A DNA stretch of 29,797 nt from a virus (lineage: Duplodnaviria > Heunggongvirae > Uroviricota > Caudoviricetes), in the IMG/VR virus record IMGVR_UViG_2671180378_000015; one strand, written 5' to 3'. The notes under the pieces were generated by a model, which ran no database searches, had not been told where the DNA came from, and was given only the letters and a program-made list of their open reading frames with translations. A program made the translations under genes and the position numbers. This document shows, piece by piece, positions 4,602 through 23,600 of the stretch. Position 1 is the stretch's first letter. The number at the start of each line of letters is the position of its first letter.

Positions 4602-4632
4602 ATGATTTTTGCTGAAGATGGCGACATGATGT

Positions 4633-4661
4633 TTGCATTTTTCAAAAAATATGGATAAAAT
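4633..4661 (+). promoter_or_regulatory. Candidate late promoter pR' (Q-modified)
   Basis: TTGCAT (4633-4638) - 17 nt - TAAAAT (4656-4661), about 30 nt downstream of Q stop, followed within 60 nt by a terminator, as expected for a Q-utilisation unit. Confidence 0.45.
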
Positions 4662-4706
4662 TTTTTCAACGATGGGCTTTGTATACCCGACGTTAAGAAA
4701 AAGTAG

Positions 4707-4735
4707 AAAACCCGCTGATGAGCGGGTTTTGTGCT
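4707..4735 (+). terminator. Candidate tR' terminator downstream of late promoter
   Basis: aaaacccgct gatg agcgggtttt stem-loop plus U-tract. Confidence 0.6.
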
Positions 4736-5022
4736 TTAAATGGGGCAATGGTAATGTTGAATCTCATCCCGGGACTCATGTCTGTTAACTTATTATTTAG
4801 CTGGTGACTTGGTTATTTGCCTGATGTTTAAAATGTTTTCTTCCAGTACAATGTCCCTAAACACAATGAGTCTGCTTATTATATTATTAGCAGAGCTATT
4901 ACGGCCAAAGTACAGCATAAGCTTTTAAAGCCAATCAACCAGTCATCAAGACAGACGGGGTTATTCATAAAAACTCTCCATGTGTGATCCGATGGGGCCT
5001 GAAATTAAAGCTTTAATATAGC

Positions 5023-5235
5023 TCATGAAAGGTAAACATTGGCAGCTGAAGGGCCACGCAGACCATTTATCCGGCAAAATTCCACGCGTAATCCGGTGGT
5101 AATTTCTTCTGCATCGCGGAGATTGAGCGCTGAAACATGAAGCTGGACATCGATACGACCATCGGATGGGGTGATAAGACCCTTGCCGCTTTTGCCGTCA
5201 AAGGTTTTGACAATTCCTGTCATTTTACGGGACAA
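5023..5235 (-). CDS. cspF: CspF cold-shock-domain protein paralog (70 aa)
   Basis: ORF track [40 protein letters not shown]...; CSD fold signature. Confidence 0.85.
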
Positions 5236-5339
5236 AAAAATTCCTTAATACTGATAACTTGGCGCACTATACACACGTTCCTGAAGAAAGCTATAGTTTT
5301 TTGATGGGGTTGAAGATGGCTGGATGTCTAAAATAAACA

Positions 5340-5368
5340 TTGCTTCATATGTTCAACTATGCGTTAAT
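5340..5368 (+). promoter_or_regulatory. Candidate cspB promoter with long (about 165 nt) 5' UTR
   Basis: TTGCTT - 17 nt - GTTAAT; the same architecture and an identical ATGCGTTAATG core recur upstream of cspI. Confidence 0.4.
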
Positions 5369-5535
5369 GATTGCGTCGGTTTGAAGAACAGACGATATAC
5401 GAAGTAGTTTACTAAAGCAGTTCTCATTTCAGGTGTTATTCACTTATTCCTTCTTTGAGTCTCTCCAATTAAGTACGAAGTCGTTTCTGTTATGCAAACC
5501 ATTTATGCCGAAAGGCTCAAGTTAAGGAATGTAGA

Positions 5536-5751
5536 ATGTCAAATAAAATGACTGGTTTAGTAAAATGGTTTAACGCTGATAAAGGTTTCGGCTTTATTTC
5601 TCCTGTTGATGGTAGTAAAGATGTGTTTGTGCATTTTTCTGCGATTCAGAATGATAATTATCGAACCTTATTTGAAGGTCAAAAGGTTACCTTCTCTATA
5701 GAGAGAGGTGCTAAAGGTCCTGCAGCAGCAAATGTCATCATTACTGATTAA
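5536..5751 (+). CDS. cspB: CspB cold-shock protein (71 aa)
   Basis: ORF track [38 protein letters not shown]...; RNP1-like KGFGFI motif. Confidence 0.9.
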
Positions 5752-6032
5752 AATTCATCGCTCGTCTGTATACGATAACGAAGAAGGCTGATGCCTGAGT
5801 AGAGATACGGACAGAGTAGTGAATATTGGATCTCTTTAATAAAAAGTAAGGAGGTCCAATACATGAAACAATGGCTAGCATATTTGGCAAAATCTTAATC
5901 AGGAAAAGTATGCTAACCATTGTGGTGAAGTGCAGGTTTGCTGCATGAATAGTTTCACAGCAGAAGCTAACTGCTGGCATCGCAAAACAAAGTGCGTAAG
6001 TGGATGACTCCCACAAAAAGCACCACAATCTC

Positions 6033-6056
6033 AAACCCGCTCAGGCGGGTTTTTTA
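6033..6056 (+). terminator. Rho-independent terminator downstream of cspB (possibly bidirectional)
   Basis: aacccgc tcag gcgggtt followed by tttttt. Confidence 0.6.
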
Positions 6057-6114
6057 TTATCTGCTTTAAATATATTATTAAAATATAAAAAATACTTGTT
6101 ACTAATAAAATCAA

Positions 6115-6285
6115 TCAGGCTACAGCTTTAAGATTTGTCTGGAATACTTTGTTGCAATGAGGGCAGATCAAAAGGGCACCTTTTTGTACTCTTGAAAAAC
6201 TGTGTTCTGACTCTTGGGTGCAGTTTGGGCAGGAACATTTAACGAGATAATTACGGCGTGATTTTGAGTCTTTACGTTCTGACAT
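6115..6285 (-). CDS. Small Cys-rich (putative zinc-ribbon) protein, 56 aa; not in ORF track
   Basis: Hand translation of minus strand: MSERKDSKSRRNYLVKCSCPNCTQESEHSFSRVQKGALLICPHCNKVFQTNLKAVA; RBS AGGAAAAgcct before ATG; two Cys clusters CxCxxC ... CxxC. Confidence 0.45.
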   Translation of the reverse strand: MSERKDSKSRRNYLVKCSCPNCTQESEHSFSRVQKGALLICPHCNKVFQTNLKAVA

Positions 6286-6504
6286 AGGCTTTTCCTGTAT
6301 AATGGCCGTATACAGTACACTAAATATGAAAACATTTCTCGTATTATTATTTTATATATGACTTTCTTTCAAAATAATTACTCACATTTTTAATGTGTAT
6401 GTTTCTTTAGCGCCGTTGAGAACAACGTGTGCTGTCAAAACTACCCCGTAGACTCCGATCTTTTTCAAACATATTGCACCATCCGTGTACATCGGGGTGA
6501 GGAT

Positions 6505-6720
6505 ATGAAATCAATGGATAAGTTAACAACAGGTGTTGCCTATGGCACATCGGCGGGTAATGCTGGTTTCTGGGCATTACAGTTACTCGATAAAGTAACT
6601 CCGTCACAGTGGGCTGCAATCGGTGTGCTGGGTAGCCTGGTTTTTGGCCTGCTGACGTATCTGACAAATCTTTATTTCAAGATTAAAGAAGACAGGCGTA
6701 AGGCTGCGAGAGGAGAGTAA
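6505..6720 (+). CDS. essQ: Phage-21-type class II holin (pinholin) with dual-start MKSM motif (71 aa)
   Basis: [71 protein letters not shown]; two TM segments, charged C-terminus; RBS GGGGTGAGGA before ATG 6505. Confidence 0.85.
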
Positions 6721-6724
6721 TCCA

Positions 6725-7032
6725 ATGACTCAAGACTATGAACTGGTTGTGAAAGGAGTCCGTAATTTTGAGAATAAAGTTACGGTAACTGTAGCCTTAC
6801 AGGACAAGGAACGCTTTGACGGTGAAATTTTTGACCTGGATGTCGCCATGGACCGTGTTGAAGGAGCTGCGCTGGAGTTTTATGAGGCAGCAGCCAGAAG
6901 GAGCGTCCGGCAAGTCTTCCTGGAAGTAGCAGAAAAATTGTCAGAAAAAGTTGAGTCTTATCTGCAGCATCAGTACTCCTTTAAGATTGAAAATCCTGCC
7001 AATAAGCACGAGCGTCCTCATCATAAATATAT

Positions 7033-7036
<4 letters not shown>
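6725..7036 (+). CDS. ydfR: YdfR-like protein (DUF1327), 103 aa
   Basis: ORF track MTQDYELVVKGVRNFENKVTV...; position between holin and endolysin as in Qin. Confidence 0.7.
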
Positions 7037-8060
<1,024 letters not shown>

Positions 8061-8242
8061 GGTAATATTAAATCGGAACATTTACATCGCGGAATGTAAA
8101 ATTTAAATAAAAAGGACTCTTCCATGAGCCAAAATTCCTGAAATCTTAAGGGTAAGATAAAAGGTCTTAATCAGAATGACACGTTTTATTAATAAATAAA
8201 GCTATTCTTTCATTGCTGTGTTTTTCTTTACAAAAGTAATCC

Positions 8243-8271
8243 TTGCTATGGGTGGTTAATCATGCGTTAAT
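8243..8271 (+). promoter_or_regulatory. Candidate cspI promoter with long (about 150 nt) 5' UTR
   Basis: TTGCTA - 17 nt - GTTAAT, containing the same ATGCGTTAATG core as the cspB upstream region. Confidence 0.4.
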
Positions 8272-8422
8272 GGTGTTCTGGTTTGTTACAAATTTATCTG
8301 AAGCAGTCATTGTTATAATTTTATTATTTGTACCTCTTGAGATTTCCTTGTTGGTTTTTCTCTCTGATATTTTTTTTCGGACCATTCTGCCCAAGGGCTA
8401 ATTTCTTCAAAAGGTAATAATT

Positions 8423-8635
8423 ATGTCTAACAAAATGACTGGTTTAGTGAAATGGTTTAACCCTGAAAAAGGTTTTGGTTTCATCACGCCGAAAGATGGC
8501 AGCAAAGATGTGTTTGTCCATTTCTCAGCAATTCAGAGCAACGATTTCAAAACATTAACTGAGAATCAGGAAGTTGAATTTGGTATTGAGAACGGACCTA
8601 AAGGTCCTGCCGCTGTTCATGTAGTGGCGCTTTGA
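8423..8635 (+). CDS. cspI: CspI cold-shock protein (70 aa)
   Basis: ORF track [45 protein letters not shown]... Confidence 0.9.
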
Positions 8636-8834
8636 GGTAGACAATATTACAAACCATATTCACTTTAGATGCCCGTGTTGTCATGGTTCCCAGTATAGAA
8701 CATCATCTTTTGATGTTTCTGACATGAATCCTTTCGGGGCAAAATGTATCTTTTGTAAATCAATGATGATTACATTTGATAATATTTCACAATACTTAAA
8801 TGCCAGCCGTCTGTCGTTGGATTTAAAAAAGTGA
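8625..8834 (+). other. Open frame encoding a second Cys-rich zinc-ribbon-like peptide lacking a canonical start (possible non-canonical start or decayed paralog)
   Basis: Frame reads ...HFRCPCCHGSQYRTSSFDVSDMNPFGAKCIFCKSMMITFDNISQYLNASRLSLDLKK stop 8832-8834; first ATG (8724) lies after the first Cys cluster; strong terminator immediately downstream. Confidence 0.3.
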
Positions 8835-8840
8835 AAATGA

Positions 8841-8864
8841 AGGCTCCTTCGGGAGCTTTTTTGC
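8841..8864 (+). terminator. Rho-independent terminator
   Basis: aggctcc ttcg ggagct followed by tttttt. Confidence 0.65.
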
Positions 8865-8906
8865 TTGGTATCTATTCGATGGATACTCACATACTACGGT
8901 AACATC

Positions 8907-9137
8907 ATGAAAAAAATCATAGTTTTTTTTAACTCTGAACCAGCAGTGGTAGTGCCAGCGATGACTGGAGTTAACACCATCATGCGTGAATATCCAAATG
9001 GCGAAAAAACACACCTTACTGTAATGGCCGCAGGGTTTCCATCTCTGACCGGAGATCATAAAGTCATTTATGTAGCCGCGGATCGACATGTTACTTCAGA
9101 AGAAATTCTGGAAGCAGCAATAAGGCTCTTGAGTTGA
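8907..9137 (+). CDS. Hypothetical small prophage protein (76 aa)
   Basis: ORF track frame 8865-9137; likely start MKKIIVFFNSEPAVVVP at ATG 8907; no recognisable domain. Confidence 0.4.
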   Translation: MKKIIVFFNSEPAVVVPAMTGVNTIMREYPNGEKTHLTVMAAGFPSLTGDHKVIYVAADRHVTSEEILEAAIRLLS

Positions 9138-9305
9138 TTTGATGCTATTGTATTGATAATTCAGGAAAATTCTCTTTGTCTGTTTGTGTAAAATTTAGAC
9201 TATCGTATGTTGATTATTGCGATGTTTCATCTTATCTTTTACACGTTTGCACCATATAATCGACTTACTGTGTAACTGGAAAGTCATAACAGACTAAAAG
9301 AGGAA

Positions 9306-9482
9306 ATGATGAATATTGAAAACTTAAAAACAAAAGCAGAAGCAGATATTTCTGAATATATAACAAAAAAAATTATTGAACTTAAGAAAAAGACCGGGAA
9401 AGAAGTTACCAGTATTCAGTTTACCGCACGGGAAAAAATGACGGGTCTTGAAAGCTATGATGTCAAGATTAATTTAATCTGA
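9306..9482 (+). CDS. gnsB: GnsA/GnsB-family small protein (58 aa); not in ORF track
   Basis: Hand translation MMNIENLKTKAEADISEYITKKIIELKKKTGKEVTSIQFTAREKMTGLESYDVKINLI; RBS AAGAGGAA before ATG; upstream TATAAT box. Confidence 0.7.
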   Translation: MMNIENLKTKAEADISEYITKKIIELKKKTGKEVTSIQFTAREKMTGLESYDVKINLI

Positions 9483-9633
9483 TGTATTCAATAATAAAAT
9501 TTATCCATAAACCTCGTTTTTTCGGGGTTTTGTTATATTTGAATGGTTCCGAATATCTAAATCACAATTGTTGATGGTTTTTATTAAACCAATGCAGTCC
9601 GGCTCAGGAGTGAGAGAAGCCGGACGTTATGGT

Positions 9634-20653: not shown

Positions 20654-23600
20654 TTTGGGGATTGATGCGGCAGAGTTTAAAAATGAAATTCCCCGTATCA
20701 AAAACCTTCTGAATGGTGCAGCCAGCGATGCAGAACGGTCTTCTGCCCGTATGCAGCGTTTTATGGAGCGTCAGACTCAGGCCGCCCGGCAGACAACGCA
20801 GGCAGCTTCTTCGGCTGCAACAGCCGCATCCGTCCATGCGCAGACGGTGGAGAAGAACGCACAGGCTCATGAACGCATGGCCCGCGAGGTGGAGAAAACC
20901 CGCCAGCGCATGGAGGCACTGAGCCAGAAAATGCGCGAGGAACAGGCGCAGGCCATGGCTCTGGCGGAGGCTCAGGATAAAGCGGCTGCTGCGTTTTATC
21001 GTCAGATTGACAGTGTGAAACAGGCCAGTGCGGGGCTGCAGGAATTACAGCGTATTCAGCAGCAGATCCGACAGGCCAGAAACAGTGGCGGGATTGGTCA
21101 GCAGGATTATCTGGCGCTGATTTCTGAGGTTACTGCGAAAACCCGTGTTCTTACACAGGCTGAGGAAGAGGCTACCCGACAGAAAGTGGCGTTTATCCGT
21201 CAGCTTAAAGAGCAGGCAACCCGCCTGAATCTTTCATCTTCTGAGTTGCTTCGTGCTAAGGCAGCCCAGCTGGGGGTAAGCAGTGCTGCAGAAGTGTATA
21301 TCCGCAAAATGGAGCAGGCAGGAAAAGCCACGCATTCGCTGGGTCTGAAAAGTGCAGCAGCCCGCCAGGAGATAGGCGTTCTGATAGGTGAACTGGCCCG
21401 CGGCAATTTAGGGGCGCTGAGGGGATCCGGGATAACGCTGGCTAACCGTGCCGGATGGATAGACACACTGATGTCACCGAAAGGCATGATGCTTGGCGGG
21501 GTTATTGGCGGTATTGCCGCGGCCGTCTATGGTCTGGGTAAAGCCTGGTATGACGGTCAGAAGGAGGGGGAAGAATTTAACCGCCAGTTGTCGCTGACGG
21601 GGCATTATGCCGGAGTCACTGCCGGGCAGCTGTGGACGCTCAGTCGTGCTATTTCCGGGAATGGTATCACGCAACATGCTGCAGCCGGTGCGCTGGCTCA
21701 GGTGGTGGGGAGTGGTGCATTTCGTGGAAACGATATCGGTATGGTGGCGAGAGTTGCCGCACAGATGGAGCGATCGGTTGGCCAGTCGGTCAGCGATACC
21801 ATAAATCAGTTTAAGCGGCTGAAGGATGATCCTGTAAATGCCGCGAAGGCTCTGGACAATGAGCTGCATTTTCTTACTGCCACTCAGCTTGAGCAGATAC
21901 GCGTCCTTGGGGAGCAGGGGCGGTCCAGTGATGCTGCACGGATAGCCATGTCTGCACTGGCAGAGGAAACCGGTCGGCGTACTGCGGATATTGATAATAA
22001 CCTCAATGCGCTTGGCAGTACGCTGAAGTATCTGTCTGATTTGTGGAGTCGTTTCTGGGATGCGGCCATGAATATTGGTCGTGAAGACTCGCTGGATGAA
22101 CAGATTGCCGCTTTACAGGAGAAAGTGTCGCGGGCGAAAAGACTCCCCTGGACGGCATCATCTTCTCAGGTTGAATACGATCAGCAGCGTCTTAACGATC
22201 TTCAGGAGAAAAAACGCCAGAAGGATTTGCAGGATGCAAAAGAGCAGGCAGAGCGGAATTATCAGGAGCAACAGAAACGCCGTAATGCTGAAAATGCTGC
22301 ACTGAACCGGATGAATGAAACGGAAGCAGCACGACATCAGCGTGAAATTGCGCGTATTAATGCCATGCAGTACGCCGATCAGGCTGTCAGGGATGCGGCG
22401 ATACAACGTGAAAATGAACGTTACGAGAAAGCCCTGGCATCCGGTAAGAAAAAAACACGCGAAACCCGTAATGATGAGGCCACCCGGTTATTGCTGCAGT
22501 ACAGTCAGCAACAGGCACAGGTGGAAGGACAGATTGCTGCTGCCAGACAGTCAGCAGGCATTGCCACGGAAAGGATGACAGAAGCGCATAAACAGCTTCT
22601 GGCTCTGCAGCAGCGCATCAGCGACCTGGACGGGAAAAAACTGACGGCAGATGAAAAGAGTGTGCTGGCCCGTAAAGATGAACTGATTCAGGCACTGACG
22701 CTGCTGGATGTAAAACAGCAGGAGCTTCAGAAACAGACGGCACTCAACGAGCTGAAGAAAAAAACAATTCAGCTGACCAGTCAACTGGCTGAAGAAGAGC
22801 GCGCTCAGCGTCAGCAACATGACCTGGATATCGCCACGGTGGGTATGGGTGATCAGCAGCGACAGCGATATCAGGTACAACTGAGTCTTCGCCAGAAATA
22901 CCAGCAACAGCTGGAGCAGTTGAGGCGGGATAGTGAGCAGAAAGGGACATATAACACGGATGACTACAGAAAGGCCGAGCAGGCGCTGACGGAGAGCCTG
23001 AACCGACAACTGAATGAGAATCGCCGTTACTGGCAACAGCTTGAAGTTGTGCAGGGTAACTGGAAAAACGGAGTCCTGCGTGCATTTCAGGATTTTACCG
23101 TGGATGCAGATAATACGGCAGAAACAGCAGAACAGGTGTTCTCGTCAGCCTTCAGCAACATGGGAAATGGCCTGGCAACTTTTGTCACTACCGGCAAACT
23201 CAATTTCAAATCCTTCACCTCTTCTGTGCTGTCAGATATGGCGAAAATCCTGGCGCAGGCAACCATGATGAAATCGATAAAAGGGATTGGCAGTGTACTG
23301 GGATTTGATCTCAGCAGCCTTTCCCTGAATGCCAATGGGGGGATTTATCAGTCTGCTGATTTGAGTCGTTACAGTGGCACGGTGGTTAACCGTCCGACGT
23401 TTTTTGCTTTTGCAAAAGGCGCGGGTGTGATGGGGGAAGCGGGACCTGAAGCCATTCTGCCATTGCGTCGTGGTGCTGACGGTAAGCTGGGGGTTGTGGC
23501 GGATATTGGGGGGTCAGGTATGGCGATGTTTTCCCCGCAGTACAACATCGAGATCAATAACGATGGCACGAACGGGCAGATAGGTCCGGCTGCCCTGAAG

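Follow-up and report, generated by a model that had tools for sequence, protein, structure and literature searches.

The window, by which we mean the whole 29,797-nucleotide stretch of Caudoviricetes DNA analyzed here (IMGVR_UViG_2671180378_000015), contains two ORFs of 70-71 amino acids with a cold-shock domain, cspB and cspI, which lie on either side of a group of lysis genes. Window bases 4800-9000 are 100% identical to many Escherichia coli genomes, including that of O26:H11 strain 11368. The gene order in O26:H11 is ydfT (antiterminator Q), cspF (divergent), cspB, ynfU, the lysis genes essD-ydfR-rrrQ-rzpQ, and cspI, after which come ynfQ, ynfR, ynfN, gnsB, and then the terminase. The locus represents the late region of a lambdoid prophage of the Qin type. 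Its coding regions are as follows.

5023..5235, minus strand: cspF, divergent from cspB (from the ORF list and the RefSeq annotation of the identical O26:H11 region)
5536..5751, plus strand: cspB coding region, a cold-shock-domain ORF, S57R relative to K-12
6115..8060: ynfU (minus strand), then the lysis cassette essD-ydfR-rrrQ-rzpQ (plus strand), between cspB and cspI
8423..8635, plus strand: cspI coding region, identical to K-12, followed by ynfQ, ynfR, ynfN, and gnsB

The region is 99.65% identical to that of K-12 MG1655. The S57R substitution, an AGT to AGA change at position 5706, is the single difference between the window CspB and K-12 CspB, and cspI and cspF are both identical to their K-12 counterparts. 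The two stretches that hold the promoters and leaders (5300-5545 and 8200-8432) are 100% identical to K-12 MG1655, so that published experiments on K-12 apply to them directly.

An unannotated 11-codon ORF, MKQWLAYLAKS, was also observed at 5848-5898 on the plus strand, with a strong Shine-Dalgarno sequence, AAGGAGG, 8 nt upstream. It sits in a stretch of about 300 nt that runs from the cspB stop codon to a strong terminator-like hairpin at 6033-6052, and it is identical in K-12.

The 11-mer and promoter geometry

An earlier note on this DNA, made from the sequence alone, had singled out an identical 11-mer upstream of cspB and cspI as a shared promoter or leader core. The 11-mer, ATGCGTTAATG, indeed occurs on the plus strand exactly twice in the whole window, at 5359-5369 and 8262-8272. 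The promoter-like arrangement in which the note had placed it, TTGCT(T/A)-17-GTTAAT, is likewise present at both sites: TTGCTT (5340-5345) is separated by a 17-nt spacer from GTTAAT (5363-5368) at cspB, and TTGCTA (8243-8248) by a 17-nt spacer from GTTAAT (8266-8271) at cspI. The note had put this arrangement about 150-175 nt upstream of the start codon. Counted from the first base of the 11-mer, the ATG is 177 nt away in cspB (start at 5536) and 161 nt away in cspI (start at 8423); counted from where the -10 box ends, the distances are 168 nt and 152 nt, respectively. The promoter elements are listed below.

5330..5339, plus strand: AT-rich UP-element-like tract AAAATAAACA, adjoining the cspB -35 box and aligned with the cspA, cspG, and cspI tracts
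5340..5345, plus strand: cspB -35 hexamer, TTGCTT
5359..5369, plus strand: cspB 11-mer, composed of A, TGc (5360-5362, extended -10), GTTAAT (5363-5368, -10), and G
8230..8240, plus strand: AT-rich UP-element-like tract ACAAAAGTAAT, upstream of the cspI -35 box
8243..8248, plus strand: cspI -35 hexamer, TTGCTA
8262..8272, plus strand: cspI 11-mer, composed of A, TGc (8263-8265), GTTAAT (8266-8271), and G

In a 30-kb window that holds hundreds of repeated 11-mers (289 identical pairs, as compared with about 118 in shuffles), a shared 11-mer by itself means little, and the repeat could be read as a functionless coincidence. We find such a coincidence scarcely credible, since both copies occupy the same position relative to the -35 box and to a conserved GGTTTG, both precede paralogous genes, and the arrangement is conserved throughout the order in linkage with csp ORFs, as described below. 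The pattern TTGCT-N14-ATGCGTTAAT-N7-10-GGTTTG has two matches in the window, which are the cspB and cspI sites, and shuffles give an expectation of 0.00. The full promoter arrangement at the two sites is not due to chance. Two copies that differ from the 11-mer by one base (2272-2282 and 20868-20878 on the minus strand) are without the -35 and GGTTTG context and were set aside as chance matches.

Neither csp promoter was listed by a simple consensus promoter scan of the window. The scan missed both sites because TTGCTT matches only three of the six bases of TTGACA and GTTAAT is without A at position 2; this shows a limit of the scan and does not count against the promoters. Without the usual A at its second position, a -10 hexamer would need a TGn contact.

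The promoter flanks of cspB and cspI align as homologous with those of the cspA and cspG promoters. The four-way alignment of cspB, cspI, K-12 cspA, and K-12 cspG has in common a TTGC-type -35 with an AT-rich tract directly before it, TGn, nTTAAT, and, a few bases on, GGTTTG at the RNA start. The extended -10 is TGc+GTTAAT in cspB, cspI, and cspG and TGg+CTTAAT in cspA, which leaves TG and TTAAT as the invariant letters of the four cores. A TGn motif beside the -35 and -10 elements has been reported for the cspA, cspB, cspG, and cspI promoters (bioRxiv 10.1101/2021.03.08.434349, citing Phadtare and Severinov 2005). Phadtare and Severinov (2005) reportedly found TGn to be critical for cspA promoter activity, without its accounting for low-temperature transcription. 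Experimental tests of TGn dependence are known for cspA only, and so is a requirement for the UP element (Mitta et al. 1997). By analogy with their homologue cspA, cspB and cspI would likewise depend on TGn and the UP tract for function.

Transcription starts and leaders

The 5' UTRs in cspA, cspB, cspG, and cspI have been given as 159, 160, 155, and 145 nt, respectively (review, PMC6719143). Applied to a sequence identical to K-12, these lengths place the starts at 5375/5376 for cspB and 8278 for cspI, 7-8 nt after GTTAAT. The Rfam model of the cspA thermoregulator, RF01766 (gathering threshold, 78 bits), matches both transcripts over its full length, at 5375-5767 with 161.6 bits for cspB and at 8277-8662 with 112.8 bits for cspI. 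Position 1 of the model falls 6-7 nt past the 11-mer, in independent agreement with the starts derived from the literature. The long structured 5' UTRs predicted in the earlier note are thus borne out by the Rfam scores and the published lengths, which contradict the note's own refuting case of 5' ends close to the start codons. The description of the 11-mer as a leader core has to be withdrawn: the 11-mer lies upstream of the transcription start, at positions -16 to -6, and is a promoter core only. The leader features are as follows.

5375..5535, plus strand: cspB 5' UTR, 160-161 nt (start of the RF01766 match; published 160 nt; identical to K-12)
5378-5393, plus strand: cspB cold-box hairpin GGTTTGAAGAACAGAC, in the cspB 5' UTR
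5507-5516, plus strand: cspB hairpin GCCGAAAGGC, GCC-loop-GGC (upstream box), before the Shine-Dalgarno sequence
5524-5528, plus strand: cspB Shine-Dalgarno sequence, AAGGA
8278..8422, plus strand: cspI 5' UTR, 145 nt (RF01766 match from 8277; published 145 nt; identical to K-12)
8280-8293, plus strand: cspI shortened 5' hairpin GGTTTGTTACAAAT
8389-8398, plus strand: cspI hairpin GCCCAAGGGC, GCC-loop-GGC (upstream box), before the Shine-Dalgarno sequence
8411-8414, plus strand: cspI Shine-Dalgarno sequence, AAGG

Alignment with the cspA leader and its cold box (GGUUUG ... ACAGACC), a check the earlier note had proposed, gave a different outcome for each gene. The cspB leader has the cold-box hairpin, with GGTTTGAAGAACAGACG, and the cspI leader has only the shortened hairpin, which is without ACAGAC. 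An early coding stretch, the downstream box AATGACTGGTTTAGT(A/G)AAATGGTTTAAC, is conserved in cspB and cspI with one difference between them.

The 11-mer might instead serve mainly as the site of a trans-acting regulator that binds over the -10 box, such as a cold-specific factor or a nucleoid protein, and not simply as an RNA polymerase element. Four of its bases that sigma-70 does not strictly require, A-16, C-13, G-12, and G-6, are identical in cspB and cspI, and the first three of these are identical in cspG too, which has A at -6. We nevertheless judge a regulator site to be very unlikely, because cspA, which is under the same regulation, differs at A-16, C-13, and G-12 (GTGGCTTAAT), and because the csp genes in fetched loci that are without the exact core carry ATGAGTTAAT, GTGGCTTAAT, or TGTGATTAAT, with only TG and TTAAT invariant.

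Leader folding and the temperature switch

At 37 °C, one long stem-loop is predicted in both transcripts, by the minimum free energy (MFE) and the centroid fold alike, with MFE z-scores of -2.2 and -2.0. In the cspB prediction, UTR bases at about 5401-5420 pair with codons 6-13 (about 5552-5572), and the Shine-Dalgarno region is unpaired with a probability of 0.23 and the AUG with one of 0.10. In the cspI prediction, the corresponding values are 0.19 and 0.65, the AUG being mostly unpaired. The predicted MFE shape agrees with that reported from DMS-MaPseq in 2025, in which the cspB, cspG, and cspI leaders form a large stem-loop at 37 °C that sequesters the ribosome-binding site and, at 10 °C, a register-shifted, shorter, UTR-only stem-loop that frees the initiation region (PMC13271884). 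These published structures support the earlier note in calling the leaders RNA thermosensors, as they document a switch between 37 °C and 10 °C in both cspB and cspI.

The comparison of warm and cold folds that the note had suggested came out only in part. The predicted 37 °C fold hides the Shine-Dalgarno sequence in both leaders, and the AUG in cspB only; equilibrium folding at 25, 15, and 10 °C gave no opening of the Shine-Dalgarno sequence or AUG in either leader. The lack of predicted opening in the cold is consistent with a switch that lies beyond simple thermodynamic prediction.

In 23 of 29 homologues, the initiation region is better hidden by the native leader than by shuffled leaders of matched composition, the window's own sequestration z-scores being modest (-1.4 for cspB, -0.4 for cspI). 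When the cspB fold was mapped onto the 29 homologues, 66% of its positions paired, as compared with 34-42% in slid controls, and the helix between UTR and coding region was 81.5% paired across the alignment. Because the leaders align poorly in their middle part, RNAalifold found just 9 pairs in a MAFFT alignment of the 29 sequences. High conservation of both arms of the long-range helix leaves covariation support weak.

Within the cspB leader, the 5' GGUUUG (5378-5383) was observed to have two mutually exclusive partners, the local cold-box CAGAC(C/G) at 5389-5394 and a distal CA(G/A)ACC at 5498-5503, some 35 nt ahead of the AUG. Across the 29 Enterobacterales leaders, RNAalifold keeps a single long-range helix, this distal one; five of its six pairs are standard in at least 28 of the 29 sequences and the sixth in 25. 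This pairing may be part of the structural switch.

Distribution across Enterobacterales and viruses

A search with the pattern that recovers the two window sites gave 93 stretches from species-representative genomes and at least 120 viral contigs. Genera that carry it include Escherichia, Citrobacter, Klebsiella, Yokenella, Pectobacterium, Dickeya, Lonsdalea, Pantoea, Yersinia, and Xenorhabdus. A csp ORF follows the -10 box at 142-190 nt in 86 of 94 genome matches and in 144 of the 147 viral matches listed, and several of the exceptions lie at locus edges. Conservation extends to positions outside the search pattern, both in the UP-like aAAatAa, which is kept in 86 unique Enterobacterales promoters, and in the cold-box consensus GGTTTGaa..acAGacc. 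The promoter-leader module is an old, order-wide csp expression cassette.

Among the 120 viral loci listed, 27 have both promoter types on the same strand at 2.9-3.5 kb from each other, and the commonest spacing in these loci, 2,903 nt, is that of the window. Lambdoid prophages carry the csp module in two copies that flank lysis genes. The finding that the module is conserved across Enterobacterales and common in lambdoid prophages is modestly useful.

Two further observations were made among the loci collected. A locus of Yokenella regensburgei (4607-7187) holds a divergent cspF-like gene, a cspB-type gene, a lysozyme gene, and then a cspI-type gene with ynfQ and ynfN, from which it follows that the layout of the prophage cassette is not specific to E. 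coli. Contigs labelled as a Veillonella parvula MAG, a Chryseobacterium sp., and a Mucilaginibacter MAG (L042, L064, and L068) carry Escherichia- or Scandinavium-type csp loci, and the proteins of L042 are 100% identical to the E. coli rrrQ-rzpQ-cspI-ynfQ-ynfN-gnsB products; the three are probably contaminating enterobacterial contigs in their assemblies.

Possible sequence exchange between cspB and cspI

The identity of the two 11-mers could also have been kept by gene conversion between cspB and cspI and not by selection on promoter function, the two genes being direct repeats 2.9 kb apart whose 5' coding parts are 82% identical. However, the flanks of the 11-mer have diverged (5 of 14 spacer bases are common to both sites, and the leaders are about 42% identical), so that a conversion tract would have to be only 11 nt long, and the same core stands upstream of csp genes in the distant Yersinia, Xenorhabdus, and Pectobacterium. 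Conversion is extremely unlikely on these grounds.

Over the first 115 coding nt, 94 of 115 positions (81.7%) are identical in cspB and cspI, which agrees with the figure of about 80% in the earlier note, and the remainder is about 54% identical. The note had regarded this stretch as a substrate for recombination, a claim that holds only in part, the identity itself being real. Efficient RecA-dependent exchange in E. coli usually needs roughly 23-27 bp of identity; the longest perfect runs in the stretch are 17, 14, 13, and 12 nt. A synthetic query spanning a junction of the cspB 5' part with the cspI 3' part found the chimera in none of 5,426 complete E. coli genomes, so recent cspB::cspI deletions are absent or very rare. 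The 5' coding region encodes RNA-binding motifs, holds the downstream box, and pairs with the leader, all obvious functional causes of its conservation.

The chromosomal cspG locus of K-12, which consists of cspH (divergent), cspG, ymcF, ymcE, and gnsA, was compared with window bases 5023-5650 and 8419-9483. From cspH to nt 115 of cspG, it aligns with the window from cspF to nt 115 of cspB at 76% identity; from the cspG start codon to ymcF, it aligns with the window from the cspI start codon to ynfQ at 74%, and gnsA matches gnsB further on. Sites at which cspG agrees with only one of the two genes favor cspB on the left by 73:19 and cspI on the right by 35:13. The best break in affinity lies at coding nt 70-71, and the observed statistic was reached in 0 of 2,000 permutations. 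With cspA as the outgroup, parsimony-informative sites join cspG to cspB over cspI by 12:1 in the promoter and leader, and cspG to cspI over cspB by 12:3 in coding nt 71-216. In neighbor-joining trees, which rest on short segments, the cspI-type leaders form a 100% clade that excludes cspG, and cspG stands beside the cspB-type leaders in a grouping with bootstrap below 50%; trees of the 3' coding part place cspG within the cspI-type clade (64%), apart from a clade of the cspB-type genes (83%).

From these comparisons, cspG appears to be a mosaic whose affinity switches within the coding region, cspB-type on the left and cspI-type on the right. The mosaic would fit, as its simplest reading, an ancient crossover in a Qin-like prophage that joined a cspB-type to a cspI-type gene and removed the lysis cassette. 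The full proposal is that the first 70-115 or so coding nt served as a crossover at least once and that cspH-cspG-ymcF-ymcE-gnsA is the relic of a Qin-like prophage, in which ynfU and the lysis cassette were deleted and a cspB-type promoter and leader were fused to a cspI-type 3' part and its downstream genes; we consider the chances for and against it to be evenly balanced. No description of a mosaic origin of cspG was found in the searchable literature, whose coverage is incomplete. If the proposal is true, E. coli owes one of its major cold-shock genes, cspG, to the domestication of a chimera formed in a prophage. The mosaic would link the way a core cold-shock locus arose to the decay of a prophage, and it is the only mildly new element of the analysis.

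A probable promoter and thermosensor cassette

The 11-mer, with TGn at -15/-14 and the non-consensus hexamer GTTAAT, very probably serves as the extended -10 element in a pair of paralogous sigma-70 promoters, cspBp and cspIp, that give rise to long thermoregulator leaders. RNA polymerase would be aided at these promoters by the AT-rich UP-like tract, the TTGCTT or TTGCTA -35 box, and the TGn contact, which would make up for a -10 hexamer that is without the usual A at -11. Transcription would then start 7-8 nt past GTTAAT, at 5375/5376 for cspB and 8278 for cspI, and produce leaders of 160-161 nt and 145 nt that belong to the cspA thermoregulator family. A single long stem-loop, formed at 37 °C by the leader and the first codons, would conceal the Shine-Dalgarno sequence and the start codon. 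In the cold it would give way to a shorter one made of leader bases only, and with both sites exposed the mRNA would be translated. In this proposal cspB and cspI act as self-contained cold-shock cassettes that flank the lysis genes of a Qin-type lambdoid prophage.

The sequence geometry, homology, Rfam membership, K-12 identity, order-wide linkage of promoter and csp gene, and predicted 37 °C fold were computed here, and the mapped leader lengths, TGn motif, and temperature switch are taken from the literature. The promoters, TGn motif, long leaders, and temperature switch of cspB and cspI are all already published; on these points nothing is added to cold-shock biology, and the reading made from the raw sequence was sound. 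The value of the analysis for annotation is that the promoters, starts, and thermosensor leaders of cspB and cspI are placed in the prophage at base-level precision.

Comparison with known systems

One of the closest known systems is E. coli cspA (RF01766). Like cspA, the two prophage genes have an AT-rich UP tract, a TTGC-type -35, a 17-nt spacer, and TGn with nTTAAT; an RNA that begins just before GGTTTG; a leader of 145-161 nt with a GCC-loop-GGC hairpin before the Shine-Dalgarno sequence; an early coding region that is conserved; and, at 37 °C, folding in which the Shine-Dalgarno sequence and AUG are hidden. They differ from cspA in the core (GTGGCTTAAT in cspA and ATGCGTTAAT in cspB and cspI) and in the -35 box (TTGCAT versus TTGCTT or TTGCTA). 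The cspA leader is 51% identical to that of cspB and 40% identical to that of cspI, which, unlike cspA, is without the ACAGAC part of the cold box. Moreover, cspA is a core gene of the chromosome, whereas cspB and cspI are borne by a prophage.

E. coli cspG shares the ATGCGTTAAT core, and its leader is 70% identical to the cspB leader. Its neighbors are paralogues of those in the window as well, the divergent cspH of cspF, and ymcF and gnsA of the ynfQ and gnsB found near cspI. In contrast to the prophage pair, cspG is a single chromosomal gene and has no lysis cassette. The major cold-shock csp genes of Yersinia, Pectobacterium, Xenorhabdus, Klebsiella, and Citrobacter have the exact pattern 142-190 nt upstream of the csp ORF, but these loci are mostly solitary chromosomal genes that do not have cspF, lysis genes, or ynfQ as neighbors. 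A register-shifted stem-loop that frees the ribosome-binding site in the cold is also the device of the E. coli lpxP and cpxP RNA thermometers (PMC13271884), although their sequences and genes are unrelated to those of the csp leaders and lpxP depends in addition on the chaperone CspE (PMC13271884).
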